A stretch of DNA of 64,000 bases from Verrucomicrobiia bacterium (GCA_035387945.1 DAOOOX010000002.1:139282-203281), one strand, 5' to 3'; shown: positions 4,300-44,756, counted from the first letter of the stretch. A program made the numbers and translations. Notes: a model not told the origin generated them from the letters alone.

Positions 4300-4420
4300 G
4301 TCTCATTTTCCCCCCGGCGGCGCCCCTGAGTCCGGCCATCTCCCGCCGTTGGGCATCTCACCGTCCCGCCCAAAGATAATGTTCGCGGTGCGCCCCGCAG
4401 TGGCCCGATACTGGGTCGCC

Positions 4421-5821
4421 ATGAGGATACTCCTGCTCCTTCTCGCCGCCTGCTGCACCGCAACCTCCGCACAAATCCCGAATTTCGTCCTCGCGATGGC
4501 CGACGATCAGGGCGCCGGCGACATGGCCTACTGCGGCCATCCCACCCTCCACACCCCAAACTTTGACAGCCTGTCGCGCGAAGGGCTCCGCCTCGACCGC
4601 TTCTACGCCGCCGCGCCCGTCTGCTCGCCCACCCGAGGCAGCGTGATGACGGGCCGCACGCCAAACCGATACGGCTGCTTCAAGTGGGGCTACACGCTCC
4701 GGCCTCAGGAGGTCACTGTCGCCGAAGCCCTCAGGCGCGCCGGTTACACGACGGGACATTTCGGCAAATGGCATCTGGGCTCCCTCCGGCCCGACAGCCC
4801 CACATGCCCCGGCCAGAGCGGTTTCGACACATGGTTCTCCAGCCCCAACTTCTTTGACGTCGACCCCTGGATGGCCCGCGAGGGCAAGTCGATCCACACC
4901 TCCGGCGAAGGCTCCGAGGTCATCGTCGATGCCGCGCTCGAATTCATCCGTGGTGCCGCCAGGGCCGGGCGCCCCTTCCTCGCCGTGGTCTGGTTTGGTT
5001 CGCCCCACTCACCGCACATCGGCACCGAAGCGGACCTCGCGCTCTATAAGGATCAACCCGAAAAAATGCGGCCTTTCCTGGCCGAGATCACCGCCATGGA
5101 CCGCGCCATGGGCAAGCTCCGCAGCGGTCTCCGCGACGCGGGCATCGCCCAGAACACCCTCCTGTGGTACTGCTCCGATAACGGCGCAATCCAAGAGGGC
5201 TCCACCGGCGGCCTCCGCGGCAAGAAAGGCAGCATCTGGGAGGGCGGCCTCCGGGTGCCCGCCCTCATGGAGTGGCCCGTGCGAATCCGCCAGCCCCGCG
5301 CGTGCGACGTCCCATGCGGCACCGTCGATATCTTCCCAACCCTTCTGGAACTGGCCGGCGCGAAAGTCCCCGCGCGCCCGCCCCTCGACGGCATCAGCCT
5401 CGCCTCACTCATCGATGGCACCATGGCCTCCCGCCCCAGCCCCATGGGTTTCTGGGATTACCCCATCCGCGGCCTCCAAACAAAAAGCACGGAACTCCTC
5501 GAGACCCTCGCCCAAGAGCAGGCCTCAGGAAAGGTCCGCCCAGCCGCGGAGGCCGAACCCATCCCCGCCGCCCAACTCCGCACCGACTACCCCACTGACT
5601 CGTTTCCGGGCCACGCCGCCTGGCTCGATAACCCTTGGAAACTCCACCGCATCCAAGAGAAAAACGGCCCCGTCAAATATGAACTCTACAACCTCGCCGC
5701 TGACCCGACCGAATCTCACGACCTCGCCAACACCGAACGCGAGCGCATCCCCCGCATGCAGGCCGGGCTGGAAAACTGGCTGCGCTCTGTCGTCGCCAGC
5801 CTCAACGGCGCGGATTACTGA
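4421..5821 (+). CDS. Formylglycine-dependent sulfatase (arylsulfatase family)
   Basis: Signal peptide MRILLLLLAACCTATSAQ. The sulfatase signature C-S-P-T-R-G-S-V-M-T-G-R (C-x-P-x-R) and GKWHLG are present. ATG 4421 was verified; alternative upstream starts are at 4349 and 4379. Confidence 0.85.
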   Translation: MRILLLLLAACCTATSAQIPNFVLAMADDQGAGDMAYCGHPTLHTPNFDSLSREGLRLDRFYAAAPVCSPTRGSVMTGRTPNRYGCFKWGYTLRPQEVTVAEALRRAGYTTGHFGKWHLGSLRPDSPTCPGQSGFDTWFSSPNFFDVDPWMAREGKSIHTSGEGSEVIVDAALEFIRGAARAGRPFLAVVWFGSPHSPHIGTEADLALYKDQPEKMRPFLAEITAMDRAMGKLRSGLRDAGIAQNTLLWYCSDNGAIQEGSTGGLRGKKGSIWEGGLRVPALMEWPVRIRQPRACDVPCGTVDIFPTLLELAGAKVPARPPLDGISLASLIDGTMASRPSPMGFWDYPIRGLQTKSTELLETLAQEQASGKVRPAAEAEPIPAAQLRTDYPTDSFPGHAAWLDNPWKLHRIQEKNGPVKYELYNLAADPTESHDLANTERERIPRMQAGLENWLRSVVASLNGADY

Positions 5822-5830
5822 CCTGAAAAC

Positions 5831-5903
5831 TCCCGTGGCCGTGAGGCAGGCAATCCTGCCTGCCGCCGCGTGCCTTGGACGCCGTCGCGGGCAGGATTGC
5901 CCG
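5831..5903 (+). repeat. Palindromic extragenic repeat, family R2, copy a (3' of the sulfatase, 5' of the GntR gene)
   Basis: GCCGTGAGGCAGGCAATCCTGCCTGCCGCCGCGTGCCTTGGACGCCGTCGCGGGCAGGATTGCCCGCG has a 12-14 bp stem (GGCAATCCTGCC / GGCAGGATTGCC) around a GC-rich loop of about 30 nt. It is about 90% identical to 28981-29052. Confidence 0.7.
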
Positions 5904-5948
5904 CGTTACGCTCCAGTGGATTTGCACCCCCCGGCGGTGCCTCCCCCC

Positions 5949-5992
5949 TTGACATCCCCTTTTGCCCATGTCATCATCTGATCATATGAGTG
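5949..5992 (+). promoter_or_regulatory. Candidate promoter and near-palindromic operator upstream of or overlapping the GntR gene start
   Basis: TTGACA at 5949-5954 is followed 17 nt later by CATCAT. The segment CATGTCATCATCTGATCATATG has TCATCA / TGATCA half-sites in inverted orientation, as GntR/FadR operators often do. Confidence 0.2.
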
Positions 5993-6687
5993 CTGTCGCT
6001 ACCCATGCGCTGCGCCTTGAACGCCGCGAAACCCTCGTCGAAGCCACCGCCCGCGCCCTCATCCGGTACATCTCGAAACAAGGTCTGGTCGGTGGTGATC
6101 GCCTGCCATCGGAACCCGAACTGATCGACATGGTTGGCGTGAGTCGCCTGCCGCTGCGCGAGGCACTCTCGATCCTGAAAGGCATCGGGATCGTGGAGGC
6201 GCACCACGGCAAGGGCGTCTTCGTCAAAAACCTGGATATCGCCTCGGTCTTCAGCCTGCTCTCCCCGCTCCTGAAGGCACAGGTCAACATAGGTGTGCCG
6301 CAGATCATCGAGGCGCGTCTTCATCTGGAACCTGTCATCGCCTCGCTCGCAGCCGAGCACCGGAGCCATGCTCATTTGGCTGAACTGAAGGAGCAGATCG
6401 CACAGATGAAGGCCCACTTGGAGGATCGCGCGACATTCATCGATGCCGACGTCGCTTTCCACCAGTGCCTCGCACGCGCGGCGGGCAATCCGATCTTCCA
6501 CGTCTTCATGGCCGCCCTGACCGACCTGTTGCGCGAGGTGCAGTATCGCTACCCCGACCAGCTCCAGCACCGCGAGGCCTCCCTGAGATTCCACGAGCGC
6601 ATCAACGCCGCCGTCCAAAGTCGCGATGCCAGTGCGGCATCTTCCGCGATGCGCGAACACATCCAGTACATTGCCGAACGGCTGTGA
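5962..6687 (+). CDS. GntR-family transcriptional regulator (FadR-like C-terminal domain)
   Basis: N-terminal winged HTH (LPSEPELIDMVGVSRLPLREALSILKGIGIVEAHHGKGVFV) with an all-helical C-terminal effector domain. Its stop overlaps the GTG start of the downstream gene (GTGA). Confidence 0.8.
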   Translation: MPMSSSDHMSAVATHALRLERRETLVEATARALIRYISKQGLVGGDRLPSEPELIDMVGVSRLPLREALSILKGIGIVEAHHGKGVFVKNLDIASVFSLLSPLLKAQVNIGVPQIIEARLHLEPVIASLAAEHRSHAHLAELKEQIAQMKAHLEDRATFIDADVAFHQCLARAAGNPIFHVFMAALTDLLREVQYRYPDQLQHREASLRFHERINAAVQSRDASAASSAMREHIQYIAERL

Positions 6688-9600
6688 GAACCATCTCGAT
6701 CGCCATCGTCTTCGCAGCTCTCCTCGGCGAGGTTTCGACCGCCGCCTCTCCCACGTCGTTCGTCTTCACGCTGGTGCCCGATGCGCGCGCCAACGCGGCC
6801 ATCCAAACCGAACTTGAGTACGACACCCGCGAGTGGCACGGCTCCACTTTCTGGACCGGACCCGATTGGACCCGCGTTGGAAAAGACTGGCACCACCCGG
6901 GCCAGAACACAGCCAGCGTTCGCCGCTTCACCTGCCCGCGCGATGGACACATCACGATCGCGGGACGCGTTTTCAAACGACACCTCGCCGGCGACGGAAT
7001 CGTTGCCAGGGTCTTCCACAACAACCGTGAAATCTGGCGCGTCCAGATCGCCGGCGACGACGCCACCGGCAAGTCTCACAAGCTCCCCATAAACGCCCAA
7101 CGGGGCGACACGGTCCGCTTCGTTGTCGAGAAAAACGGCAGCATCGGTTGCGACACAACCGGCTGGGACCCCACCATCGCGTACGACGACGGGACCGCTT
7201 TCACCGCCTCGGCCGCCTTCGCCGCGCACACGCAGGGCGCTTCGGGTTGGCATTACGAAATGGCTCCAGACGGTCAACCCCTGAAACCAACGCCATCGGC
7301 CAGCATTCGCTATTTCGGCCCAGACCTGAGCCTAACAGAAAAATCTCTTCCCGCTCGCCTCACCCAGCAGGACGCCCTCCCGTTCGCCATCATCTCAGCC
7401 ACCCCCAACGACCCGGCCCACGTCGTCGCCTTTGACTCATCCGCTCCATGGGCCCTCTCCGCAGCCCCAATGCCCGACGGCACCGTCCGCCTCGCGGGGG
7501 TATCCGAGAGCTCCGCGCCAGTCTGGCACGCCAAATTCCGAGGCGACTGGGCCAACGGCCTCATCGCCATGGAAGCCGCCATTCGTTCCGGCGATGCACC
7601 GGCCACGCTCCGCAAATGGTTCGACATGACCCTCGCGCGCACCGAAACCACGCTGCCCCTCTGGGCCATGGTCCAGGAAGAATGGATCCGCCAGGACCAG
7701 ATCGATGGCTCGGTCTCCCGTTATCTCGCGGCCACGACCAACCAGACCGCCCGCGCAATGGCGGCGCTCGCCTCACTGGGAGATGCCCCAGGCGCGCCCC
7801 CCCGGCAGACCGCGATCGGGGAACTCTCCCGATTAAGCGCTCGATGCTCAGGGTCGCTCGCGGGCGCCGCCGCCCGCTCCCTCTGGCTGGATGCCCGCAT
7901 TTTGAAGCGCCGCATCCTGCTCGCCCACCCGCTCCTTGATTTCGGCGAGTTGCTCGTCTGCAAGCGCGCCATGCCCTCATGGAGCCACCTTGTCGCCCAA
8001 TACTTTGGATGGCGGCAGCGCCCCGGCGGCGGCCTCTTCGTCGTCACCAGCCCCGGCCACTCCCTCGAAACCCGGGACATACTTCGCTCCCAGCTGCCCC
8101 CCGGCAGCGTGCTCGAGCCCCGCCTCGCGCCGGATGGTCGCCGCATCCTGTTCGCCCACGTTGCCTGTGGCACTGACGCCCCCGAACCCGACCAGCTGCC
8201 CGTCAACGAGCGCGGCGATGGCGACCGCTATTTCCACCTCTACGAGATCAACATCGACGGCTCCGGTCTGCGCCAGATCACCGACGATTCTTATGACGAC
8301 ATGATGGCCGAGTACCTCCCGGGCGGCGATATCGTCTTCTGCTCCACTCGGCGCAAAGGCTATTCACGCTGCTTCGGGCCCGAATACTCCAACCGCTGGC
8401 ACACTTACACCCTCCACCGCATGCGACCCGATGGCTCACACATCCGCACCCTGTCCTTCAACGACGTCTCCGAATGGTTCCCATGCATCGCCCCATCAGG
8501 AGAGGTGCTTTTTGCCCGCTGGGACTACATCGACCGCGATGCCGTCACCCATCAGAACCTCTGGGCTATGCGCCCCGACGGCACCAACCCCACGGCCCTG
8601 TGGGGCAATGCCACCCCAAAGCCCCACTGCACCTTCCAAGCCCGCCCTGTCCCCGGTAGCCGAAAACTTGTCTTCATCGCGTCCGCTCACCACTCCATCA
8701 CCGGCGGACCCGTCTGCCTCCTCGATCCCACCATAGATCCCAACAGCCTCGACGCCGTCACCCGCCTCACGCCCGAGCCTTTCCCCGAGGCAGAGGGCAA
8801 ACCGAAGGAGTGGTATCAGTCGCCATGGCCACTCTCGGAATCCCTCTTCCTCGTCGCCCACAGCCCGTTCCCGCTCCGCTTCCAGGGCGAGCACATCCGC
8901 GAACCCAACCCCGATAATGCTCTTGGCATCTGCCTCCTCGATTCCTCCGGAAACCGCGAATTGCTCTACCGTGACCCAGACATATCCACCACCACCCCAA
9001 TCCCGCTGCGCCCCAGCGGCCAACCCGCCAAGGCCATCGCCACCACCTGCCCATCCACCGAGACCGGTGTCGGTCGCATGCTGGTCGCCGATATTTACCA
9101 AGGACTCGGGGATGTCCCGCGCGGTACGATCAAGGAACTGCGCATCGTCCAGCTCTTTCCAAAATCCACATGGCTCGCCAATAATCCCCGCATGGGTGTG
9201 GCCGGCGAAGAGAACGGTCGCGCAATCATTGGGACCGTGCCCGTCGAGGCCGATGGCTCCGCGTACTTCGAGGTGCCGGCCGGCAGGCAGATCCTCTTTC
9301 AGGCGCTCGACTCCTGCGGCATGGCATACCAGACCATGCGATCATCCACCTATGTCCAGCCCGGCGAGACGACCGCTTGCATCGGTTGCCACGAGCACCG
9401 CATGCTGGCGCCTCCCCCCGCCTGCGGACGACCTCTGGCCACCACCCGCCCGCCATCGCGAATCGACCCGGGAAAGCTGGGGGGCCGCCCCTTCGGCTTC
9501 GTCGAGATGGTGCAGCCCATCTTGGATGCCAAATGCGTGAGCTGCCACGGCGGCGAAAAGACAGACGGGGGCATCGATCTCTCCAGAAAGCCCGAGGCCG

Positions 9601-9941
9601 GCTTTAACCGCGCCTACATCGCCCTCTGCGGAACACCCGATTCATGGAAGGAACGCGGCTTCGTCCCCGCCTTTGCCGAGAAACTTCTCGTCCCCCGCTT
9701 CGTGCAGCGCAACCAGATACAGATGACTCCGCCCGGCGGCGCGTACGGCGCCCGCGGCAGCCGACTCATGCGGCTCCTTCTCAATGGCGACGGCCACGAG
9801 GGCGTCAGACTCTCCGACGACGACATCCGCCGCCTCGCCGCATGGATCGACCTCAACGCCATCTTCTACGGCTCATACGACCCAGAACACCAAGCCGCCC
9901 AGCTCGTCGGCAAACTCGTCCCCATGCCCGCCACCCAGTGA
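6684..9941 (+). CDS. Secreted di-heme-c beta-propeller protein, HzsA-like architecture (paralog A), with an N-terminal beta-sandwich domain
   Basis: GTG 6684 (verified in frame) gives signal peptide MRTISIAIVFAALLGEVSTAASP; the track ORF start at 6465 overlaps the GntR gene and is rejected. PD40/TolB-like propeller repeats (HLYEINIDGSGLRQITDD; ARWDYIDRD...MRPDGTNP). Two CXXCH motifs (CIGCHEHR, CVSCHGGE). C-terminal motif AAWIDLNAIFYGSYD is shared with the three downstream paralogs. Confidence 0.6.
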   Translation: MRTISIAIVFAALLGEVSTAASPTSFVFTLVPDARANAAIQTELEYDTREWHGSTFWTGPDWTRVGKDWHHPGQNTASVRRFTCPRDGHITIAGRVFKRHLAGDGIVARVFHNNREIWRVQIAGDDATGKSHKLPINAQRGDTVRFVVEKNGSIGCDTTGWDPTIAYDDGTAFTASAAFAAHTQGASGWHYEMAPDGQPLKPTPSASIRYFGPDLSLTEKSLPARLTQQDALPFAIISATPNDPAHVVAFDSSAPWALSAAPMPDGTVRLAGVSESSAPVWHAKFRGDWANGLIAMEAAIRSGDAPATLRKWFDMTLARTETTLPLWAMVQEEWIRQDQIDGSVSRYLAATTNQTARAMAALASLGDAPGAPPRQTAIGELSRLSARCSGSLAGAAARSLWLDARILKRRILLAHPLLDFGELLVCKRAMPSWSHLVAQYFGWRQRPGGGLFVVTSPGHSLETRDILRSQLPPGSVLEPRLAPDGRRILFAHVACGTDAPEPDQLPVNERGDGDRYFHLYEINIDGSGLRQITDDSYDDMMAEYLPGGDIVFCSTRRKGYSRCFGPEYSNRWHTYTLHRMRPDGSHIRTLSFNDVSEWFPCIAPSGEVLFARWDYIDRDAVTHQNLWAMRPDGTNPTALWGNATPKPHCTFQARPVPGSRKLVFIASAHHSITGGPVCLLDPTIDPNSLDAVTRLTPEPFPEAEGKPKEWYQSPWPLSESLFLVAHSPFPLRFQGEHIREPNPDNALGICLLDSSGNRELLYRDPDISTTTPIPLRPSGQPAKAIATTCPSTETGVGRMLVADIYQGLGDVPRGTIKELRIVQLFPKSTWLANNPRMGVAGEENGRAIIGTVPVEADGSAYFEVPAGRQILFQALDSCGMAYQTMRSSTYVQPGETTACIGCHEHRMLAPPPACGRPLATTRPPSRIDPGKLGGRPFGFVEMVQPILDAKCVSCHGGEKTDGGIDLSRKPEAGFNRAYIALCGTPDSWKERGFVPAFAEKLLVPRFVQRNQIQMTPPGGAYGARGSRLMRLLLNGDGHEGVRLSDDDIRRLAAWIDLNAIFYGSYDPEHQAAQLVGKLVPMPATQ

Positions 9942-9945
9942 TCTC

Positions 9946-12900
9946 ATGAGCCCGATGGCAGATCAAAACGTGAAAACGACCGCCGCTGGGCCGTCGCCTC
10001 GCCGGAATCCGTCCGCGACCGCGACCCGGCCCGGCGCGGGCATCCTCACCCGCCGTCTCCTCCTGCTCGCCATCGCACTGACCGCAGCGCCCCTGGTCCA
10101 TGCGAGTGAGATGGACGCGTTCACCATCCGGGCAACCGACTTCGACGAAGGCAACGTCCGGATCAGCCTCGCGGGCGAGGCGTATGCCGACGGGCACCCC
10201 TGCATCTGGCACGGCAGCGGCTCGCCAGATCAGGCGGGGTATGTGATCGAGTTTCCCGTCACCGGTGACTACACCCTGTCTGCCTTGTATGCGGCAGCTA
10301 AGTCGCGACCCGTCGAGATCAGTATCGACGGAAGACCAGTTCATACCGGGCTCACGGACGTGACCGGCAGCTGGCAGACGAAGTCGGCAAAGTGGGAAAA
10401 GCAATGCACGTTGCGCATCGAACGTGGCACGCACACGATCACCCTTCAACGCGAAGGCCCACTGCCGCACATCTGCGCTTTGCGGATTGAACCGCCCGCC
10501 CCACTCCCCGCGGGAACGACTCTCGGGCGCCTCAGTCCAGAGGAACGCGCCGAGCGGGCGCGCATCGCCGAGCATCGGGCGGAGATCCAAGCGAAAGTTG
10601 CGGCGCTCAAAAGCATCAACATCCAAGCCGTACGCCTAGCCATCGAAGACATGGAACGGAGTTTTCCGGGACGGTACGACGGGGTGAAACATCGGCGAGC
10701 GTTGGCCGAGTTTGCGCGCATCCACGAATCGCTCGCAGAGGCGCTCGATAAGGGCGAACTGCCTGAAACCGCACCACCGGTCGAAGAATTGCTCGCCGGG
10801 ATACGGACCGCCCTGCTGGAAAATCCCCTGCTCGATTTCGACAGATTGTTGGTGATGCGACGTCGCCCGAGGGACAGCAACGGCTTTGTCCCCGCCAACT
10901 ACCTGTCGCACGCCAGCATAACAGGCCGAACCGGATGGGATAATGAGATCGCGGTGCTCGCTGATCTGCGCGGAAAGGCCACGCTGCAGACTCTCCATCG
11001 GCCGAAGGAGACGCGCATCCTGCGCGACGTGCGCCTAGATTTCGATGCGAATAGGGTCTTGTTCTCCAGCATTGACGATAGGGGCCGATGGGCCGTCTAC
11101 GAAATCCCATCCACCGGCGGCGAACCTCACCAGATCACGCATTCAACGTTCCCGGATGTGGATTTCTTCGACGCCTGTTATCTGCCCGACGGACGGATCA
11201 TCGTGGCCTCGACAGCGAATTATCACGGCGTCCCCTGTCTCGGCGGGCAGCAGCCGGTGGCGACACTCTATCTTTTGGAGCCCGCGGCAGGAAAACTCCG
11301 GCAGCTCACATTCGACCAGGATCACAGTAATGATCCTGCCGTTCTCAACGACGGGCGCGTGCTCTACCAGCGCTGGGAGTACAGTGACATCCCTCACTAC
11401 TTCGCGCGCCGACGAATGACGATGAACCCAGACGGCACCGGGCAACTTGCGTTGCACGGCAGCGGCTCGTGGTTCCCAACGGCGTTCCGCTTTGCCCGAC
11501 CGGTTCCGGATCATCCGACGATGCTGGTCGGGATCATCAGCGGACACCATGATTACGGCGACTGTGGCCGCCTCGCTTTGCTCGACCCGGGACTGGCCGG
11601 CGGCTATCCGTTCCGTTACCGGCCAGCGTCGAAAGAGTGGGGCGTCGAAGGCCAGCACGTCGCCCTCACCCCGGATATCCTGCCCGCAGAAAAGACCGGG
11701 TTCTTGCAGCTGGCGCCGGGCCGCGGCAAACCGGTGGCCGGCACCGTCTGCGACAACATCGTCAGGGGCGTCTATCTCAAGGAGCGGCCGGAGTTGATGA
11801 CGCACCCGCATCCGCTGAGCGGCAAATACTTCCTCGTCGCGATGAAGCCGACGCCCCGGAGCCTCTGGGGCATCTATCTGGTGGACGCTTTCGACAACAT
11901 GACGCTGGTCGTCGAGGAAGAGGGAGCGGCGCTATTCGAGCCGGTCCCGTTGCAGCCAAGAAAACGCCCCCACGTGATCCCCGACAGGGTCGACCTTGGC
12001 AAGAGGACCGCCACGGTGCATATCGGCAATATCTATGCCGGTCCCGGGCTGAAGGGCATACCGGATGGCACGGTCAAGTCGCTGCGCGTTTTCTCCTACC
12101 ATTTCGGGTACCTGGGCAAGGCGAGCTTCGAGATAATTGGCACGCAGGCCGGCTGGGATGTGAAACGCGTCCTCGGCACCGCCAGGGTGGAATCGGACGG
12201 CTCGTCTTTGTTCGTCGTCCCGGCGAACACCCCCATTTCGATCCAACCGCTCGACGGCGAAGGCCGCGCGGTACAACTGATGCGGAGCTGGCTTGTCGGC
12301 ATGCCGGGCGAACGGGTCTCCTGCACCGGTTGCCATGAGAACCGCGCCGAGACGTTGTCGGTCAGACGCACCTTGGCCGACCAGCGCTTGCCGGAACCAT
12401 TGGCGCCGTGGTTCGGGCCGCCGCGACCGTTTGACTTCGCCAACGAGGTGTATCCGGTCCTTCAAAAGCACTGCGGTGGCTGCCACGAAGACAGACCAGC
12501 GGTTGGCCCTCGCGCCAAACCGTCGTTCAGCCAACCTGACGTTGCCTACGACACGCTGCACCCGTACGTCCACCGCCCGGGGCCAGAAGCCGACATGGCA
12601 CCTCTCAACCCCATGGAGTATCACGCCTCCAGCAGCCGACTGATCCAGATGCTTGAGAAGGGACACCACGGTGTCCGGCTCGATAACCTCCCTCGCGAGT
12701 CCCGCGAACGCCTCTACTGCTGGATCGACCTCAACGTGCCCCGGCGCGGTTCGTATGAGCTGCCCGCCGACAAACAGCACATCGCCCAGCGCCGACGCGA
12801 ATTGAACAAGGTGCTGGCGGAGATCGAGCCCGACCCCGAGCAAGAGGCGCGGCAGTTGGCCGAAGCCAGGAAAAATGCACCGCCGGTTGTTTTCGAACCG

Positions 12901-13839
12901 CCCGCGAGACCCGCCGACGAACCACCCGACGTGCTCCAGGTGGATGGCTTTCCCCTCGACGCGGCGGCCGCTGCCGAACGCCTGCGCGGGGCGCCAGGCG
13001 GCGGCATCAAGACGATGGAGTTTGGCCGGGGAGTGCGGCTGGTGCTGCGCTGGATCCCCTCTGGCGAATTTGTCATGGGCAGCCGCGACGGGGCGCGGGA
13101 CGAACGTCCTCGCGCAACGGTCAAGGTCGCACAGCCGTTCTGGATGGCGGAAGCCGAGATCAGCAATGCCCAGTACGCGCTCTTCGATCCCGAGCACGAC
13201 ACGCGCTACATCGACATGCACCACATGGATCGGGTGACCCCCGGCTACATCGCCAATCATCCCGACCAGCCGGTCGCGCGTGTCTCCTGGCAGCAGGCGA
13301 TGGCTTTCTGCGAATGGCTCGGCCTCAAGATCGGCCTGCGGGTGACCCTGCCCACCGAAGCCCAATGGGAATGGGCCGCGCGCGGTGGCACCGACACGCA
13401 ATTCTTCTACGGCACCATGGACACGGATTTCGGACGTTTTGCGAATCTGGCCGATCAGTCGTTGCGCTGGTTCAAGATGGGCTATCCAGGCCCCGGGAAC
13501 CTGCAGCCGCGCCTCCCCTATCCATCGGACAACAACTTCCCGTTGCGTGACGAACGCTTCCGCGACAAGTACCATGTGGTGGACTACGTCGGCCAGACCG
13601 AACCGAATCCGTGGGGCTTGAACGATATGATTGGCAACGTCAGCGAATGGACCCGCTCCAGCTATCGCCCGTATCCGTATGCCGATGACACGCGCAACGA
13701 TGAGAACCCTGGCGAGCGCAAAGTCGCCCGTGGCGGTTCCTGGGCCAACCGGCCCGCTGATGCGGGCTCATCGGTGCGTCGCGCCTACGAATCGTGGCAG
13801 AAAGTGTACGATGTCGGCTTCCGGGTGATCGTTGAATAG
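9946..13839 (+). CDS. Secreted di-heme-c beta-propeller protein (paralog B) with an N-terminal CBM6/35-like domain and a C-terminal FGE-sulfatase-like (DUF323) domain
   Basis: ATG 9946 (verified) lies 4 nt after the paralog A stop. Signal peptide RRLLLLAIALTAAPLVHA. CBM-like beta-sandwich (GYVIEFPVTGDYTLSALYAAAKSRPVEISIDG). Propeller repeats (VYEIPSTGGEPHQITH; YQRWEYSD). CXXCH x2 (CTGCHENR, CGGCHEDR). CWIDLN motif. C-terminal about 290 aa have an FGE-like fold (RWIPSGEFVMGS...ARGGSW...GFRV) but no cysteine pair. Confidence 0.6.
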   Translation: MSPMADQNVKTTAAGPSPRRNPSATATRPGAGILTRRLLLLAIALTAAPLVHASEMDAFTIRATDFDEGNVRISLAGEAYADGHPCIWHGSGSPDQAGYVIEFPVTGDYTLSALYAAAKSRPVEISIDGRPVHTGLTDVTGSWQTKSAKWEKQCTLRIERGTHTITLQREGPLPHICALRIEPPAPLPAGTTLGRLSPEERAERARIAEHRAEIQAKVAALKSINIQAVRLAIEDMERSFPGRYDGVKHRRALAEFARIHESLAEALDKGELPETAPPVEELLAGIRTALLENPLLDFDRLLVMRRRPRDSNGFVPANYLSHASITGRTGWDNEIAVLADLRGKATLQTLHRPKETRILRDVRLDFDANRVLFSSIDDRGRWAVYEIPSTGGEPHQITHSTFPDVDFFDACYLPDGRIIVASTANYHGVPCLGGQQPVATLYLLEPAAGKLRQLTFDQDHSNDPAVLNDGRVLYQRWEYSDIPHYFARRRMTMNPDGTGQLALHGSGSWFPTAFRFARPVPDHPTMLVGIISGHHDYGDCGRLALLDPGLAGGYPFRYRPASKEWGVEGQHVALTPDILPAEKTGFLQLAPGRGKPVAGTVCDNIVRGVYLKERPELMTHPHPLSGKYFLVAMKPTPRSLWGIYLVDAFDNMTLVVEEEGAALFEPVPLQPRKRPHVIPDRVDLGKRTATVHIGNIYAGPGLKGIPDGTVKSLRVFSYHFGYLGKASFEIIGTQAGWDVKRVLGTARVESDGSSLFVVPANTPISIQPLDGEGRAVQLMRSWLVGMPGERVSCTGCHENRAETLSVRRTLADQRLPEPLAPWFGPPRPFDFANEVYPVLQKHCGGCHEDRPAVGPRAKPSFSQPDVAYDTLHPYVHRPGPEADMAPLNPMEYHASSSRLIQMLEKGHHGVRLDNLPRESRERLYCWIDLNVPRRGSYELPADKQHIAQRRRELNKVLAEIEPDPEQEARQLAEARKNAPPVVFEPPARPADEPPDVLQVDGFPLDAAAAAERLRGAPGGGIKTMEFGRGVRLVLRWIPSGEFVMGSRDGARDERPRATVKVAQPFWMAEAEISNAQYALFDPEHDTRYIDMHHMDRVTPGYIANHPDQPVARVSWQQAMAFCEWLGLKIGLRVTLPTEAQWEWAARGGTDTQFFYGTMDTDFGRFANLADQSLRWFKMGYPGPGNLQPRLPYPSDNNFPLRDERFRDKYHVVDYVGQTEPNPWGLNDMIGNVSEWTRSSYRPYPYADDTRNDENPGERKVARGGSWANRPADAGSSVRRAYESWQKVYDVGFRVIVE

Positions 13840-13851
13840 GATTCTTGCGCC

Positions 13852-16800
13852 GTGAAAACGATTCGAACGAATGGGAAACGGTTGGCACACGCAGGTCTAT
13901 GCTGTCTCGTTCTCGCGTCCTTGGCCCCGGGCGTCGGCGGCATGGCCGTGCCCCCCGCCCCTGCCGATGCCGATCAATCGCTCCTCGCCCACTGGACCTT
14001 CAACGAACCCATGGGCGAAACCTGCCGCGACGTGACCGGCCACGGATGCGACGCGGCGTTGCAGGGCACGCCATCGGGCGCAGAGCGAACGACCGGCATC
14101 TCCGATGGTGCACTGGCCTTCAAGGGAAACCATCGCCTGCTATGCGGTCAGAAACCCGCGTTCGGTCCGCTGCCCCAGATCTCCCTCTCGGCATGGGTCC
14201 AGCCAAACGCCTTCGACCGCTACAATGAGATCTTCCGCAAGGAGGATGGCAACAACCGCGTCCTCTTCTCCTTCCAAGAGGATGGCAAGGTCCTCGCCCT
14301 GGGCCTCAATATCGGCGGCTACGTCGAGTGCGATGCCAAGCTAGATCCAAAGCAGGTCCTCGATGGCGCGTGGCACCACTGCGCTGCCACGTTCGACGGC
14401 CAAGTCATGCGCGTCTACCTCGACGGAGTCCAGATTGGCGTCCTCCAACGGCCCGGCACGATCACCGCCGGCGGTCCCGCGCCAGCCGCCATCGGTTCCG
14501 CCAACGGACACGAGTGCTTCCAGGGCGCGATGGATGACCTCCGCATATACGCCACCGCACTCACCCACACCGAAGTTGCCACCCTCCACGCAATCGGCGT
14601 CGAGGCTATCGCCCGATCGAACGCCACCGCCACGAAAACTCTCGAGGCGCTCCTCTCTCCCCGCAACTCGTTCGCCGAAACACTGGCGGCATCGCGCCGC
14701 AACCTCATCGAAAAACAGCTGTCCCTCGACGCCGCCGTCGCCCGCGCCTTCCTCGCCCGACTGCAGGCCCAGTTCCCCGAAGACTGCCGCCAGTTCCGCC
14801 TCTGGACGGGCGCTGATCCCATCGCCTACCTCCGCGCCAAAGGCAACGATTTCCACCTCGCCATCACCGGGCGCCTCATCGGCATGCTCGTCGAATACCG
14901 TCCCTTGACCCAGGCCCAGTGGTCCAGACAGACCGAACAGGACCGGACCCGTTGGCGCGATGCCGACGTGCTCGAAGAGCGATTGGCCGCGCTAAAGGCA
15001 CGCGGCGATGAGATCCAGTTCTCGCCCGAATGGATCGCGCTGATGCAGGAAATCGCATCCCGTATCCAGTGGCGACCCTACGAGTACGAACCCGTCGCAC
15101 CGTTCATCCCACCCTCAACTCCCGAAACGCGAGATCTCACAGCCGACGAAGGCCGCGATGCGCTGGAACGCGACTGGCTCCATCAGGCCAACAACAGGCC
15201 CACTCGCGAGCACGTCGCCAACGAGATCGGCTGGGCCAAAGAGCTGGCCGCGCGCCTCCACAATGTCGATCTCTCGGCGGAACTCGCCTCGTTGTCGAGA
15301 ATCGAGGAAAGGGCGCAGGCCGCCAGCGCGGACATCGCCTCCCTCTATCTGCAGACCCGCACCGTCAAACGCAGCATCATGCTCAAGAATCCTGCGGTGA
15401 ATTTCCGGCGCGTCGTGTTTGTCGATATGCCCCTCCCCAATGGCAAGGAATGGAAACACGAGACCCGACACCGCCTCGGCTACATGGCCGTGCCCGGAGC
15501 ACGACTCCTCGTCCTCGATGGCCTCCGCCCCGACGGCAAGATCGCCCGCCTCATGCCCCGGCCGCCCCTCCACGGCTCTTTCTGGCGGCCCGATGTCTCC
15601 TTCGACGGGCGCAAGATCCTCTTCTGCTTCAAACCCCATAACGAAAAATCATTCCACCTCTACGAGATCGGCGCCGACGGCACCGGACTGCGGCAACTCA
15701 CCGATGGGCCATTCGACGACCTCGACCCCATCTATCTCCCCGACGGCCACATCCTGTTCTCCACAACCCGCGGCCACACCTATGTCCGCTGCATGCCACC
15801 CACCAGCTCCTTCGTCCTCGCCCGCTGCAACGCCGACGGCCGAAATATCTACCTCGTCTCCGCAAACAACGAGCCGGATTACCTGCCGTCGGTCATGGAT
15901 GATGGCCGCGTCGTTTACACGCGGTGGGAATACACCGACAAGCCGCTCTGGCGCGCCCAGAAACTCTGGACGATCAACCCGGACGGCACGCAGGTGCAGA
16001 TGCTCTGGGGCAACCAGAGCGTGTGGCCCGATGTCATGAAGGATGCCCGCTTGATCCCAGGAACCCGCCGCGTGATGTTCACCGGCTGCGGTCACCACGA
16101 CTGGTTTGCCGGCTCGGTCGGAATCGTGGATCCCGATCGCGGGCGAGACTTTCCCGAAGGCCTGACCAAGGTCACCGGGGAAATCCCGTGGCCAGAATGC
16201 GGCAACGGACCCACGGACCCGATCGAGTCGCCCCGCTACCACCCCCACGGCAAGTTCACCGCATATTACTCCCCCTATCCCCTGAACGAACATGACTTCC
16301 TCGTCTCTGCCACCCGAGGGGACAAGTTTGCCCTCTATCTCATGGACGTCGACGGCAACCGCGAACTGATCTACGAGGGAACCCATAACGTATTCCACGC
16401 CATCCCCGTGCGCCCACGGCCGCAGCCCCCGATCATCGTCGATCGCGTCGCGTGGCCGAAGGTCGAAACAGGCTCCCGCGCCAAGGACGGAGTCATTTTC
16501 AGCAACAATGTGTACGATGGCGCCCCCAGGGAACTGCGCGGTAAGGCGAAGTACCTGCGCGTCCTGCACATCGATCCGAAAACATACACCTATTGGTACA
16601 AACGGCCCTACATCTCCACCGGTCCGGTCGTCTCCGGCGTGCAGTCCGAGGGCGTCAAGCGCATCCTCGGCACGGTGCCTATAGAACAAGATGGCTCCGT
16701 CTCATTCCACGTGCCGCCCGGCAAGGCGCTGCACTTCCAGCTTCTCGATGAGAACTTCCGAGCGCTCCAGACGATGCGCAGTTTCGTGGGCGTCATGCCG

Positions 16801-17493
16801 GGCGAATATCGCGGCTGCCTGGGCTGCCACGAGTCACACAGCCGCGCGCCGACCGTCGCCGCCCCCGCCCGCGCGCTGGTGCAATCACCGCGCAACATTA
16901 CGCCCCCGCCCTGGCCCGACGCCACGGTCAGCTATCCCCGATACGTTCGACCCGTTCTGGACAGATACTGCGCCAAGTGCCACGCGGGCGACGGCGAGGG
17001 CCGAAAAACGCTCGACTTGACCGCCAGGCCCGGCTTCCTCGATTTCGACGAGGTCTACTGGCTCCTGATCGGCAAGCCCACGTGGGGCAAAGCCTACGAG
17101 CTGCCCAAGGACTGCCCACCCGGTTTCGGCATCGCCGACACCTTCCTCGTCGAGGGCTATGACAAGGTCGATCCCGTCGCCTACCGCACGCCTCCCCCCA
17201 TGACCCGTCTCTCATACCGCAGCCGATTGATCGATATCGCCTCCAGCGGCAAACACCACGACGTGCGCGTGGACGAAATCAGCCTGCAGCGGCTCATCTG
17301 CTGGGTGGACACGATGTGCCCCTACCGCGGCGACGAAGAAGTCCGCCAGGAACCCGATCCAATCTTTCAGGGCGTCGATTGGCTCGCCGTCCGCCCGCGC
17401 ATCCAAACGGCCCCCATCGTCGATCGCTTTCACATCTCGTCCTACGGGGATTACAATTTCACATCGGCGAGCTCCGTCAAAGAGTCCCCATGA
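13852..17493 (+). CDS. Secreted di-heme-c beta-propeller protein (paralog C) with an N-terminal LamG-like lectin domain
   Basis: Signal peptide LCCLVLASLAPGVGG. LamG/ConA-like domain (LAFKGNHRLL...LSAWVQPNAF...MRVYLDGVQIG...DDLRIYATAL). Propeller repeats (FHLYEIGADGTGLRQLTDG; YTRWEYTDKP). CXXCH x2 (CLGCHESH, CAKCHAGD). CWVDT motif. Confidence 0.6.
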   Translation: MKTIRTNGKRLAHAGLCCLVLASLAPGVGGMAVPPAPADADQSLLAHWTFNEPMGETCRDVTGHGCDAALQGTPSGAERTTGISDGALAFKGNHRLLCGQKPAFGPLPQISLSAWVQPNAFDRYNEIFRKEDGNNRVLFSFQEDGKVLALGLNIGGYVECDAKLDPKQVLDGAWHHCAATFDGQVMRVYLDGVQIGVLQRPGTITAGGPAPAAIGSANGHECFQGAMDDLRIYATALTHTEVATLHAIGVEAIARSNATATKTLEALLSPRNSFAETLAASRRNLIEKQLSLDAAVARAFLARLQAQFPEDCRQFRLWTGADPIAYLRAKGNDFHLAITGRLIGMLVEYRPLTQAQWSRQTEQDRTRWRDADVLEERLAALKARGDEIQFSPEWIALMQEIASRIQWRPYEYEPVAPFIPPSTPETRDLTADEGRDALERDWLHQANNRPTREHVANEIGWAKELAARLHNVDLSAELASLSRIEERAQAASADIASLYLQTRTVKRSIMLKNPAVNFRRVVFVDMPLPNGKEWKHETRHRLGYMAVPGARLLVLDGLRPDGKIARLMPRPPLHGSFWRPDVSFDGRKILFCFKPHNEKSFHLYEIGADGTGLRQLTDGPFDDLDPIYLPDGHILFSTTRGHTYVRCMPPTSSFVLARCNADGRNIYLVSANNEPDYLPSVMDDGRVVYTRWEYTDKPLWRAQKLWTINPDGTQVQMLWGNQSVWPDVMKDARLIPGTRRVMFTGCGHHDWFAGSVGIVDPDRGRDFPEGLTKVTGEIPWPECGNGPTDPIESPRYHPHGKFTAYYSPYPLNEHDFLVSATRGDKFALYLMDVDGNRELIYEGTHNVFHAIPVRPRPQPPIIVDRVAWPKVETGSRAKDGVIFSNNVYDGAPRELRGKAKYLRVLHIDPKTYTYWYKRPYISTGPVVSGVQSEGVKRILGTVPIEQDGSVSFHVPPGKALHFQLLDENFRALQTMRSFVGVMPGEYRGCLGCHESHSRAPTVAAPARALVQSPRNITPPPWPDATVSYPRYVRPVLDRYCAKCHAGDGEGRKTLDLTARPGFLDFDEVYWLLIGKPTWGKAYELPKDCPPGFGIADTFLVEGYDKVDPVAYRTPPPMTRLSYRSRLIDIASSGKHHDVRVDEISLQRLICWVDTMCPYRGDEEVRQEPDPIFQGVDWLAVRPRIQTAPIVDRFHISSYGDYNFTSASSVKESP

Positions 17494-17512
17494 ACAAGCG
17501 CCATATCGCCCT

Positions 17513-20395
17513 ATGAAATCGGACATCCGGACAGACGCGTTCTGGCCGCCACGACGAAGCACGAGTGACACGAAGAGACGGCCCTCTTCGTGCGTCTTGT
17601 GCGCATTCGTGGCCATCCTCGCCGCCATTCCCGCCTCCGCCTCCGAGCCCTTCACCAGCACCTTCGAGGCCCAGCCTGCGCGCTTCATCCGCGTCATCAT
17701 CCGCGCCACCAGCCAAGGCCAGCCGTGCATCGATGAACTCGAACTCTTCGGTCCCGACGGGAAAACAAACCTCGCGCGCGCGTCGCGTGGCGCCAGGGCC
17801 ACCGCCTCCTCCAGCCTGCCCGGCCACGCCATCCACCGCATCGAGCACCTCAACGATGGCCTGTACGGCAACAGCCACAGCTGGATCGCGGCGACCACGG
17901 GCGAGGAATGGGCGCAGATCGAGCTGCCCGAACCCGCCCCCGTCGCAAAGATCGCCATCTCCCGCGACCGTGAGGACCAGTATGCCGACCGCGTGCCAAC
18001 CGCGCTAGACGTCCGGCTCTCCATGGACGGCGCGCACTGGCAGACGGTCGCGCAAATGATGAACCATGCGCCCGCCCGCACCGCGAAACGCCAAGCCCCA
18101 CCCTATAAGCCCCCCGCCGACATGCCCGAACCGATCACGTGGGACGGGCTCCTTCGCTACGCCTTCCTCTGCGAGAAGGCCACGTGGGAACGACTGGACC
18201 GCGAGGACCATCTCTCGCCCCTTAACGTCGAACGCCCCGCCTATCCCGGCGGCCCACCCTATTGGGGCCGCGTCGCCAAGCTTTCCCAAGCCCAACGCAC
18301 GCTGACGCTCCTGGAGGAAATGATCGATCGCCTCGGCAAGAAAGGCGTCGATGTGCTCGCCGAGCGCCAACAGCTCGCCACCCTGCGCGCGCGTCAGACC
18401 GCCGATGGCGACGCCGTGTACTTGGAGGCACGCCTCGCCAAGCGCCAGCTTATCTTCCGCGACCCCGACCTCGCATCACTGCAGCGCGTCCTCTTCGTCA
18501 AACGCCACCCATACCTTTCGTCCCACAACTACAGCGATGTGCTCGACTCGCAGTTCCGCCCCGGAGGCGGCATCTACCTGCTGGAGATTCCCCGCAGCCA
18601 CGGTCGCCTCATTCCCGAGGCCGCCAGACTGACAATCCTCTTCGACGCCACCGATGGCATCGCCCGGGATCCCATGGCGGACTTCGACGGCAAGAAGGTC
18701 TACTTCGCCTTCCGCCCCGATAAAGGCCCGGCCGACGACGCGGCAGCCTACTGGCACCTGTGGTCGGCGAACGCCGACGGGTCAGGCGCCCGGCAGTTGA
18801 CCGACGGTCCCTTCCACGATTACTACCCGTGCCCATTGCCAGACGGTGGACTTGCGTTCATCTCCACCCGCTGCCGCGCGCGCTTCCTCTGCTGGCGGCC
18901 GCAGGCATTTGTCCTGTTCCGCATGGATGCCGATGGTGGCGATATCAGGCCCCTGTCTTACGCCAACCTCAGCGAATGGTCGCCGACGGTGATGCGCGAT
19001 GGGCGCATCCTCTGGACACGCTCGGAATACATCGACAAGGGCGCGGACTTCGGCCACACGCTCTGGGCCATCCGACCCGACGGCACCCACCCCGAGCTGA
19101 TCTTCGGCAACAATACGCCAAACTGCTACATCAACGGCCGCCAGGTGCCCGGCACCCACGAGATCCTCTCCACGATCTTCTCACACGGCGGCGACCACAA
19201 CGGCCCGCTGGGTTTGATCGACCTTGCCAAGGCGAAGGGCCCCTCCGATGTCGATGCCATCACCAACATCACCCCCGACACCAGACCCCATTACAACATG
19301 AACTGGCCGCGGCACGAATGCTGGCGAGACCCCGTGCCGATGACCCGCGACTACTTCCTCGCCAGCCACGCCCCGGCCGACCGGTTCGGACTGTATCTCC
19401 TCGATCGCTTCGGCAACCGCGAACTGCTCTTCCTCGATCCCGCGATCGGCAGCATGTGCCCCTCGCCACTGCGGCCAGAACCAGCCCCCCCCAGGCTCGA
19501 GCATTCGGCGCCCCCGCTCGCGCAGGCGCAGGTCGGCGTGCTAACGGTGGCCGATGTCTACCAGGGCCTGGGGCCCGCCGTGCCCCGAGGCCAGGTGAAG
19601 TTTATCCGAGTGTGCCAAGAGGTCCGCGCCGATCTGCTCCGATTGCCCGACGGCTCGTATCAGAACGACCACAGTCCATTCCAGGATTGGTACGCCACGC
19701 CAATCCATAAAGTCAACGGCCCGAACGGTTGGCCAACCTACGTCGCAAAGGCCTCGCTCGGCCTGGCCCCGGTCGAGACCGATGGATCCGCCTGCTTCTA
19801 CGCGCCCGCAGGCAAGATCCTCTACTTTCAGGCCCTGGACAAAAACCTCAACGAACTTCAGCGGATGCGCAGCGTCGTCCAACTCCAGCCCGGCGAACAG
19901 CGCGGCTGCATCGGTTGCCACGAGGACCGACAAACCGCCGCCCCGGTGCGCCAGACAATGGCGTCGCGACGCCCGCCCAGCACGCTGGATCCACCCCCGT
20001 GGGGCGCCGTTCCATTCGCCTACGAGCGCGTCGTGCAACCCGTCTGGGATGCGAAATGCGTGCGTTGCCATGATGCCTCGCACGAGCGGGGCATCAACCT
20101 GACCGGCGCGCCAGATGCCGATCACGTTCCGACATCCTATCGCACGCTGATCGCCGGTGGGTGGGTCCACTACTTTGACATGACCTACCGTCTCCGCCAC
20201 ACGATGGCCCCGCCGATGTCGTTCGGCACCTTGCAGAGCAAGTTACTTCGGGTCATCGATGCCGGTCACCACGACGTGAAACTCACCCGCGACGAGACCC
20301 ACGCCGTCAAATGCTGGATCGACCTCAACTGTCCCCTCTGGCCCAACTACGAATACCGGCCCGAGCGCACCCCGCTCGCATCGGCCGCCCCATGA
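17513..20395 (+). CDS. Secreted di-heme-c beta-propeller protein (paralog D) with an N-terminal F5/8 type C (discoidin-like) domain
   Basis: Discoidin-like domain (ARFIRVIIRATSQGQPCIDELELFG...WQTV). Propeller repeats (WHLWSANADGSGARQLTDG; WTRSEYIDKG). CXXCH x2 (CIGCHEDR, CVRCHDAS). CWIDLNCP motif. The signal-like stretch VLCAFVAILAAIPASA suggests the true start may be a downstream TTG/GTG. Confidence 0.6.
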   Translation: MKSDIRTDAFWPPRRSTSDTKRRPSSCVLCAFVAILAAIPASASEPFTSTFEAQPARFIRVIIRATSQGQPCIDELELFGPDGKTNLARASRGARATASSSLPGHAIHRIEHLNDGLYGNSHSWIAATTGEEWAQIELPEPAPVAKIAISRDREDQYADRVPTALDVRLSMDGAHWQTVAQMMNHAPARTAKRQAPPYKPPADMPEPITWDGLLRYAFLCEKATWERLDREDHLSPLNVERPAYPGGPPYWGRVAKLSQAQRTLTLLEEMIDRLGKKGVDVLAERQQLATLRARQTADGDAVYLEARLAKRQLIFRDPDLASLQRVLFVKRHPYLSSHNYSDVLDSQFRPGGGIYLLEIPRSHGRLIPEAARLTILFDATDGIARDPMADFDGKKVYFAFRPDKGPADDAAAYWHLWSANADGSGARQLTDGPFHDYYPCPLPDGGLAFISTRCRARFLCWRPQAFVLFRMDADGGDIRPLSYANLSEWSPTVMRDGRILWTRSEYIDKGADFGHTLWAIRPDGTHPELIFGNNTPNCYINGRQVPGTHEILSTIFSHGGDHNGPLGLIDLAKAKGPSDVDAITNITPDTRPHYNMNWPRHECWRDPVPMTRDYFLASHAPADRFGLYLLDRFGNRELLFLDPAIGSMCPSPLRPEPAPPRLEHSAPPLAQAQVGVLTVADVYQGLGPAVPRGQVKFIRVCQEVRADLLRLPDGSYQNDHSPFQDWYATPIHKVNGPNGWPTYVAKASLGLAPVETDGSACFYAPAGKILYFQALDKNLNELQRMRSVVQLQPGEQRGCIGCHEDRQTAAPVRQTMASRRPPSTLDPPPWGAVPFAYERVVQPVWDAKCVRCHDASHERGINLTGAPDADHVPTSYRTLIAGGWVHYFDMTYRLRHTMAPPMSFGTLQSKLLRVIDAGHHDVKLTRDETHAVKCWIDLNCPLWPNYEYRPERTPLASAAP

Positions 20396-24421: not shown

Positions 24422-24700
24422 GGACCTGCTGCGGACCGCATGTCTGGCTCGGCCCAATGCCACCATATTCATACGTTTTCATAACGCGCGTTCAAAGTCG
24501 AGGAGAAGCATGCCCCGCTGATGGCGAGGATGCTCATAAAGGGCGAGAACCTCGCATTGCAAGACTCCGCCCAAATCGGAACCTCCTGCGCCACAGCAAC
24601 CTCTGTCCCATGGGCCGACCCCCGATCTCGGCTTCACCACCGGATCCCACGACACCGGGTTGCCGTTGCCTCAAGCCTCCCCCTCCGCTATGGGTGAGGC

Positions 24701-35636: not shown

Positions 35637-35884
35637 GGCCGCCGCCCAGCCGCCGCGAACGTCAATCCTCGGAGCCTGCCGCGCCCCCGCCGCCACATTC
35701 CCCGCGGAAAATTGCCTTTCTCTCTTGATGACCAAAAAATTACCAGAGGAACGAGAAGTTGCGACACGGCCAAACGGCAGGGCCCGAAACATCCCAACTC
35801 AAAACTTCATCGATCTCATCCAGATCCGCTTCTGCCAGCGGGACCGTGCCCACGGTCCGAAAACCTCTGAACGGAAGCATGGAA

Positions 35885-40301: not shown

Positions 40302-40309
40302 GCCTGCCC

Positions 40310-44754: not shown

Positions 44755-44756
44755 GT

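Follow-up and report, generated by a model that had tools for sequence, protein, structure and literature searches.

The stretch of DNA analysed here (64,000 nucleotides from a Verrucomicrobiia bacterium, GCA_035387945.1 DAOOOX010000002.1:139282-203281; hereafter the window) carries on its plus strand a GntR regulator gene followed by four tightly packed genes, here called A, B, C and D, whose products are related to the alpha subunit of anammox hydrazine synthase (HzsA). On balance we lean towards the view that these five genes constitute a substrate-inducible operon, consisting of a GntR/FCD regulator and four exported non-anammox HZS_alpha paralogs with a carbohydrate-tethered redox role. 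This leaning is a compromise between two parts of unequal strength. We are highly confident of the homology, the domain architecture, the conservation of the heme motifs, the export signals and the conservation of subfamilies and synteny, whereas the proposal that the proteins are redox enzymes acting on carbohydrate-derived substrates is tentative, and we would put it at somewhat below even chances.

The list of open reading frames (ORFs) in the window and their translations confirmed the coordinates that a preliminary description of this DNA had given for the array:

5962..6687, plus strand: GntR regulator of the FadR/FCD subfamily; start codon uncertain (5962, 5968 or 5986)
6684..9941, plus strand: paralog A, 1085 amino acids; CXXCH motifs at 9378-9392 and 9534-9548
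9946..13839, plus strand: paralog B, 1297 amino acids, start uncertain; CXXCH motifs at 12322-12336 and 12472-12486
13852..17493, plus strand: paralog C, 1213 amino acids; CXXCH motifs at 16816-16830 and 16969-16983
17513..20395, plus strand: paralog D, 960 amino acids; CXXCH motifs at 19907-19921 and 20057-20071

The successive intergenic gaps from the regulator to D are -4, 4, 12 and 19 nucleotides, the first of them being a GTGA overlap in which the TGA stop of the regulator gene shares bases with the GTG start of A. The overlap on which a coupling of the regulator to the array had been proposed is thus real, and we judge the coupling itself plausible. The regulator matched the Pfam models for the GntR helix-turn-helix (HTH; E 1e-14, 53.9 bits) and for FCD (E 4e-26, 92.3 bits), and the combination of an N-terminal winged HTH with a C-terminal FCD domain places it in the FadR (FCD) subfamily. 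No NCBIfam equivalog matched it at cut-off, the best being a NanR-like model (138 bits versus 260). When the GTG at 6684 is taken as its start, A displays a signal-peptide-like segment at its N-terminus and, in fact, all four paralogs begin with a basic and then a hydrophobic segment ending in small residues, which is Sec-like by eye. The start of B is uncertain because its orthologs align only from residue 32-57 on.

All four paralogs belong to the HZS_alpha superfamily, since each of them matched PF18582 (E 7e-20 to 2e-29; 71.8-102.6 bits, gathering score 26.6) and contains two CXXCH motifs (residues 899/951 in A, 793/843 in B, 989/1040 in C and 799/849 in D). In pairwise comparison they are 29-34% identical from end to end and 30-38% identical within a core of some 650 amino acids. 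Both CXXCH motifs and the sequence contexts given for them in the preliminary description are invariant among the four. The other core motifs quoted there are present, but the terminal one has to be shortened to W-[IV]-D because the preceding Cys is absent in A. As had been proposed, each protein has an accessory module of its own. Paralog A is made up of a signal peptide, an N-terminal beta-sandwich region that is weakly CBM51/GH36-N-like, a helical linker, the propeller, the HZS_alpha domain and a C-terminal heme domain. In B, the signal peptide is followed by a module like those of carbohydrate-binding module (CBM) family 6 at about 10237-10458, the core and a C-terminal FGE-like domain (13051-13830); the CBM6/35-like assignment of its N-terminus corresponds to a CBM_6 match that exists, but below threshold (E 2.4e-5, 25.1 bits, cut-off 28.9). 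Paralog C carries a signal peptide, a Laminin_G_3 domain (14176-14580, E 3e-25), a long helical linker and the core, and D a signal peptide, a discoidin domain (17798-18070; F5_F8_type_C, Pfam E 1e-7), a helical linker, a TolB-like propeller and the HZS_alpha middle domain at 19589-19924.

The resemblance to HzsA is true homology, seen both in sequence profiles and in the fold. In HzsA of Kuenenia stuttgartiensis (5C2V chain A) the order of the domains is the same, namely the propeller, the HZS_alpha domain with heme I and a cytochrome-c-like domain with heme II. Paralog C alone was colinear with 5c2v_A, and a profile built from the four cores matched it with E 4e-30 in six colinear segments over the propeller, middle and C-terminal heme domains. 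Similarly, when an AlphaFold2 model of D (predicted local distance difference test, 80.9; predicted template-modelling score, 0.73) was compared with the PDB, 5c2v_A ranked first (Foldseek E 1.6e-27, 811 columns, target-normalised template-modelling score 0.61), and TolB propellers came next at about 1e-11. Together with the PF18582 matches, these results bear out the HzsA-like architecture that had been suggested. On the other hand, some motifs previously taken as specific to the family (DGSGLRQ-TD, Q-LD, DGS and W-I-D-L) are not so, since they occur in HzsA as well, as do the two CXXCH motifs.

Despite this kinship, A to D are catalytically different from HzsA and are not hydrazine synthases. 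Their scores against the HzsA equivalog NF052339 (cut-off 800 bits) are 50.3 for A, 26.7 for B, 44.6 for C and 52.1 for D. It is known that in HzsA the His of one CXXCH, His587, binds zinc together with Cys303, and that Tyr591 ligates the heme iron (PMC12758564, PMC12607021). The heme I motif reads CSGCHYGSYR in HzsA and C-x-G-C-H-E-x-R, with no Tyr, in the four paralogs, while HzsA Cys303 (IYGNCDGE) aligns with G-N/S-[AGQN]-[ST], so that its site is occupied by A, G, Q or N. With neither the Tyr nor an equivalent of Cys303, heme I is presumably His-ligated in the canonical manner. Neither a homolog of the beta or gamma subunit nor any further anammox gene turned up in the window when all large ORFs were scanned with Pfam, and tblastn with a beta-gamma homolog gave nothing below E 0.25, in agreement with the absence of an anammox context noted before. 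A true HzsA, or a cryptic anammox locus, was rejected on the equivalog scores, the missing Tyr591 and Cys303 and the lack of beta, gamma and other anammox genes in the window. The proteins are not PQQ or quinohemoprotein dehydrogenases either, an identity that the preliminary description had named as a refutation: the Pfam scan returned no PQQ family and the propeller is TolB/PD40-like. Further differences from HzsA are the N-terminal lectin-like modules and the helical linker, the C-terminal FGE-like domain of B, and the arrangement as four tandem paralogs instead of a single gene.

The heme motifs, whose retention in orthologs had been put forward as a test of the family, are conserved far beyond chance. 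Of 138 family representatives with a full core, 136 have the CXXCH pair and two bear additional CXXCH motifs; the pair is also present in all of 120 D orthologs. In the GHHDV motif of D, it is the second His that aligns with HzsA His772, whereas the His invariant throughout the family is its neighbour, which may reflect a shift of one residue in the register of the alignment. On this basis heme II, like that of HzsA, probably has bis-His ligation. Near heme I there is a Met that is nearly invariant (MRS motif). In the propeller, Cys460, Arg503, Tyr506 and His558 (D numbering) are invariant in 39 diverse members but not in HzsA. From the pattern of the sequence, they appear to occupy equivalent positions of successive blades and would be the obvious candidates for a pocket. 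Cys460, an invariant cysteine standing alone in a heme protein that is exported, might serve as a ligand to heme or to a metal, or form a crosslink.

The FGE-like domain of B deserves separate comment. It matched PF03781 (FGE-sulfatase) with E 3e-42 and 145.6 bits and thus has the FGE fold, and its closest solved relatives are ToxD, PorK/GldK and FGE. The catalytic copper-binding Cys pair of FGE follows a GGS[YF] motif (C336 and C341 in the human enzyme). In B, the corresponding region reads RGGSWANRPADAGSSVRRAYESWQKVYDVGFRV and has no Cys, and the pair was absent from B and from 30 of the 33 FGE-like tails of the family that were examined. Hence B shares the fold with FGE, PorK/GldK and ToxD but lacks the copper-binding pair of FGE, and its domain is probably a non-catalytic binding or scaffold module, C-type-lectin-like, as far as its sequence tells. 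A functional FGE in B implying sulfated substrates is ruled out by the absence of the Cys pair, so that, while the fold named in the preliminary description stands, B gives no evidence for sulfatase maturation or for the sulfated glycans that had been read from it.

The four paralogs are members of a very large family. Profile searches yielded at least 2,949 clusters at 50% identity (E <= 1e-30), in which the core lies at positions between residue 1 and residue 1,200 of the protein that contains it, and a search with the D core gave more than 3,362 matches. The best 120 D orthologs (64-98% core identity, nearly all with discoidin plus HZS_alpha) came from metagenome-assembled genomes (MAGs) named as Verrucomicrobiia, Kiritimatiellae, Thermoguttaceae and Sumerlaeota. 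In a scan of species-representative genomes, the matches listed also included Lentisphaerae, Phycisphaerae, Armatimonadota, Anaerolineales and Hydrogenedentes, and one complete planctomycete genome. Among 39 diverse representatives scanned with Pfam, HZS_alpha was present in 39, FGE-sulfatase in 18 and discoidin in 9, and there were rarer fusions to NPCBM (2), LamG (2), malectin (1), CBM6 (1) and, in a few, HEAT.

Full-length orthologs of each paralog exist elsewhere: 50-60% identical for A, 65-80% for B (80% in a Kiritimatiellae protein and 77% in a Verrucomicrobia protein) and, for C, 79% in Verrucomicrobiia, 68% in Lentisphaerae and 60% in Pirellulaceae. The modules therefore mark old subfamilies and not a local swap, and the idea that the accessory domains had been exchanged within this array has to be abandoned, because A to D represent four old subfamilies that keep their own modules in other phyla. 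A recent local duplication with domain swapping is ruled out by the same figures, the paralogs being about 30% identical to each other and 50-80% identical to their full-length orthologs. Arrays of family genes recur in other genomes, and gene order is conserved as well: B is followed by D in four genomes, C by D (or C-x-D) in two further ones, and the order GntR-x-D was found in a Rhodopirellula MAG. Between MAGs of different phyla, identity reached 65-79% for the D core and up to 80% for B, which is unusually high for large exported proteins and, on sequence comparison, could reflect extreme constraint or recent horizontal transfer.

In some 84 loci of 20 kb, the ORFs neighbouring family genes were clustered, and for each the distance separating it from the closest family gene was measured. 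Two tightly linked partners were found, a fused HzsB-HzsC homolog and an IclR-AraC regulator. The former (613-631 amino acids; E 2e-36 with 5c2v_B and 1e-25 with 5c2v_C) lies directly 3' of a D-type gene in eight loci, with gaps of 0-171 nucleotides and on the same strand in seven of them, and is found within 10 kb in 8 of the 45 loci of at least 15 kb. The latter adjoins family genes in five loci with gaps of 0-57 nucleotides, and a GntR/FCD regulator is adjacent both in the array described here and in one other locus (L076). In contrast to these partners, Gfo/Idh/MocA genes (18 loci), short-chain dehydrogenases/reductases (SDRs; 8 loci), sulfatases, enolase-type genes, glycoside hydrolases (GHs) and xylose-isomerase-like genes were 0-9 kb away on either strand, a scatter that is what chance would give for gene families abundant in the Planctomycetes-Verrucomicrobia-Chlamydiae (PVC) group. 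Sulfatases in particular lay 0.3-4.9 kb away on either strand. A specific linkage to sulfatases or to Gfo/Idh/MocA genes was rejected, as the spread of distances and strands in these loci looks like background.

Two of these loci show closer couplings. In a Verrucomicrobiia MAG (JAPKHT010000013.1; L088, 1-6042), a C-type gene overlaps at its start with the stop of an aldehyde dehydrogenase gene, upstream of which are an FAH-family hydrolase, whose best match (below cut-off) is 2,4-didehydro-3-deoxy-L-rhamnonate hydrolase, and a 2-hydroxyacid dehydrogenase; from these annotations, a link to deoxy-sugar acid catabolism is possible. In a Kiritimatiellae MAG (JAQUPZ010000006.1; L003), a cluster of B-like, D-like and fused beta-gamma genes is followed directly downstream and on the same strand (15145-19648) by AhbABCD genes for siroheme-dependent heme synthesis, where AhbC scores 662 bits (at or above cut-off) and is accompanied by AhbD-like and fused AhbA/B genes. 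The arrangement hints at a tie between heme supply and the HZS-like proteins in a fermentative lineage.

In the mechanism that we propose, A to D would be extracytoplasmic enzymes that depend on heme for redox or Lewis-acid chemistry. They may assemble as hetero-oligomers, a possibility raised by the recurrence of B-D and C-D adjacency across phyla. The active site would be formed by the propeller face and heme I, bound at the canonical CXXCH of the middle domain, and heme II, in the class-I-cytochrome-like C-terminal domain, would be a candidate point of electron entry or exit. The lectin-like modules (CBM51-like in A, CBM6-like in B, LamG in C and discoidin in D) may anchor the enzyme to a substrate or partner that bears carbohydrate, and the GntR regulator would sense a small acidic metabolite freed from the substrate. 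Tethering to carbohydrate is plausible because of the CBM-type fusions, the sugar-acid type of the regulators and the coupling seen in L088.

Several points weigh against this mechanism. No member of the family has an experimentally established function (PMC12758564), and the literature searched contained no study tying HZS_alpha proteins to polysaccharide use. Lectin-like folds also serve protein-protein or envelope binding, and the D-type module, conserved at 65-79% across phyla, better fits a fixed partner or ligand than variable glycans. The Gfo/Idh/MocA, sulfatase, enolase-type and GH neighbours are without positional linkage and are abundant anyway. The MRS Met could be the sixth ligand of heme I, which would make it a pure electron-transfer heme. 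Finally, heme II of hydrazine synthase is surface-exposed and beyond efficient transfer distance of the other hemes (PMC12607021), so that an intramolecular electron relay is not to be assumed and can be entertained as a hypothesis only.

The adjacency of D-type genes and the fused HzsB-HzsC homolog in relatives keeps open a role in an HZS-like, multi-subunit system acting on small molecules. According to this explanation, which we consider unlikely but the most serious competitor, A to D are the alpha-type subunits of an alpha/beta-gamma multi-heme complex whose partner is encoded elsewhere in the genome, and the complex acts on nitric oxide, hydroxylamine or peroxide in detoxification or as an electron sink. 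Besides the tight arrangement of both genes in eight loci, the AhbABCD genes immediately downstream in the Kiritimatiellae locus speak for it, and co-located alpha and beta-gamma homologs have been published for several phyla (PMC12758564, PMC10732223). However, the beta-gamma gene is near in just 8 of the 45 longer loci and has no homolog in the window, no nitrogen-cycle genes are nearby, the catalytic features of HzsA are missing in A to D, the regulators are of the catabolic sugar-acid type, and the lectin-like modules are left without explanation.

A further reading is that of non-catalytic periplasmic di-heme electron carriers, with the propeller and the lectin modules as mere docking platforms, whose task would be to connect sugar oxidoreductases of the periplasm (Gfo/Idh/MocA, SDR and the like) with the respiratory chain or some other sink. 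The frequency of Gfo/Idh/MocA and SDR genes in related loci, the cytochrome-c-like heme II domain with its probable bis-His ligation and the nearly invariant Met, which could give His/Met ligation at heme I, are consistent with it, but those neighbours are scattered as abundant families would be, and a core of 650 amino acids with invariant Cys460, Arg503, Tyr506 and His558 in its propeller far exceeds the needs of a carrier; we regard this reading as quite improbable. That the proteins are structural or adhesive envelope components with vestigial heme motifs is hardly credible: lectin-like and TolB-like modules would suit such a role, and PorK/GldK, which is structural, is among the closest solved proteins for the FGE-like domain, but neither the CXXCH pair nor the probable distal His varies across thousands of diverged sequences, and relatives are linked to heme biosynthesis genes and to a di-heme partner. 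An inducible operon for exported, carbohydrate-tethered redox enzymes is thus the explanation that we favour. As a generalization of it, the non-anammox HZS_alpha proteins might be lectin-targeted exported heme enzymes for redox or condensation chemistry directly on complex glycans or glycoconjugates in PVC-type polymer degraders, often anaerobes. They would be a class of thousands of clusters and a heme-based counterpart of the copper lytic polysaccharide monooxygenases, their tandem paralogs would form hetero-oligomers that combine specificities, and anammox hydrazine synthase would be a specialised offshoot of the class. We find this broader picture distinctly unlikely as it stands.

Upstream of the array, three further features were located:

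4349..5821, plus strand: sulfatase (Pfam Sulfatase E 2.5e-50), not counted in the system
5840..5910, plus strand: imperfect inverted repeat (arms of 32 nucleotides), located after the sulfatase stop (5821) and ahead of the GntR gene
5949..5977, plus strand: sigma-70-like promoter match (TTGACA, 17 nucleotides, CATCAT, with TG)

The arms of the repeat are 78% complementary and, as RNA, the hairpin has a folding energy of -65.5 kcal/mol (z -5.2), with none of 200 shuffled sequences folding equally well. The repeat lacks a T-run, and it is probably a terminator or insulator, or else an operator or regulatory site. The promoter match (10/12) is weak, as the scan gave 3 sites against 1.9 expected; if it is in use, the start of the GntR gene would be the ATG at 5986. 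With the hairpin intervening, the sulfatase is probably a separate transcription unit, and its association with the array looks incidental. The link to sulfatases drawn in the preliminary description is not specific: here the hairpin separates the genes, and in related loci sulfatases show no positional linkage. The glycan-utilisation neighbourhood was similarly overstated: a homoserine dehydrogenase gene stands immediately upstream of the sulfatase (Pfam, window ORFs), and a CotH kinase-like protein and a methionyl-tRNA synthetase stand between the array and the permease, the GH2-like protein and the isomerase, so that these genes and the strong hairpin interrupt it.

Elsewhere in the window, the CotH kinase-like protein (1356 amino acids, with three lamin-tail domains; 20402-24472, minus strand) is convergent with D, and this neighbour recurs in the near-identical contigs L086, L089 and L090. 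The GH2-like protein (29116-33507, 1463 amino acids) showed a weak GH2 TIM-barrel match alone (E 9e-7). An exosortase EpsH gene at 34836-35792 points to a PEP-CTERM system. A formate-hydrogenlyase/Hyf-like set on the minus strand (37702-46793) comprises a NuoH-like subunit, a fused 30kDa+49kDa NiFe-hydrogenase-like large subunit, an antiporter-like subunit, an NAD-binding/Fe-S protein and a molybdopterin oxidoreductase, and suggests a host with fermentative or anaerobic capacity. GC skew was negative in all 2-kb bins (-0.04 to -0.25) at 61-69% GC, with genes on both strands.

Hydrazine synthase was long regarded as an enzyme without relatives. The results presented here depict its alpha-type scaffold as abundant in Verrucomicrobiota, Planctomycetota, Kiritimatiellia, Lentisphaerae, Armatimonadota and other phyla, as modular (lectin-like and FGE-fold fusions) and as organized in conserved multi-paralog clusters under catabolic-type regulators. 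A function, if assigned, would give a role to thousands of large and conserved heme proteins that are exported by polymer degraders dominant in the environment, and would show the ancestry of hydrazine synthase. The array is a well-defined entry point into this very large family, of which cultured carriers exist (Planctomycetales bacterium ZRK34, CP050848.1, locus L021, has a D ortholog); the exact D protein is also encoded on contig k141_144275 of ENA ERZ27257431. With regard to annotation, genes of this type should not be used as markers of anammox, and the FGE-like domain should not be annotated as a sulfatase maturase.

HZS-like homologs outside anammox bacteria are in themselves an already published kind. 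Dalcin Martins et al. (2023, PMC10732223) suggested that the HZS-like enzymes are a broad family using alternative substrates. Hagglund et al. (2025, PMC12758564) mapped alpha homologs that are co-located with fused beta-gamma ones in clades I-IV, noted more than 600 AlphaFold-database matches named "HZS_alpha domain-containing", showed that key residues are missing, and reported no HZS-like protein with a confirmed other function. Like A to D, the published homologs are distant relatives from Planctomycetota, Verrucomicrobiota and other groups, with a canonical heme alpha-I and without the HzsA residues. Unlike the present array, they were chosen for an alpha gene beside a fused beta-gamma gene, with FG-GAP/CRTAC1 and ABC genes in clades I-III, and alpha homologs were said to be few, in contrast to the cluster count reported above. 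The texts of PMC12758564 and PMC10732223 describe no alpha-only operon of four paralogs, no lectin-like or FGE-fold fusions, no family size, no set of four cross-phylum subfamilies with conserved adjacency and no probable retention of the heme II distal His.

The earlier statement that proteins of this type have no assigned function holds in the searched literature (PMC12758564, PMC10732223), but it overlooked a precedent for the combination of modules. Cbp2D and Cbp2E of Cellvibrio japonicus and Teredinibacter turnerae are secreted CBM-linked c-type cytochromes (PMC8981238, PMC12542752, PMC10916295). Neither was returned by Pfam or PDB searches with A to D, searches that included no direct comparison. 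Similarly to A to D, they combine secretion, a CBM and a c-type heme, and an extracellular redox role in polysaccharide breakdown has been proposed for them. However, theirs are small single-heme electron-donor domains with neither propeller nor HZS_alpha domain, and we treat them as a functional analogy for the glycan-redox reading and not as homologs.

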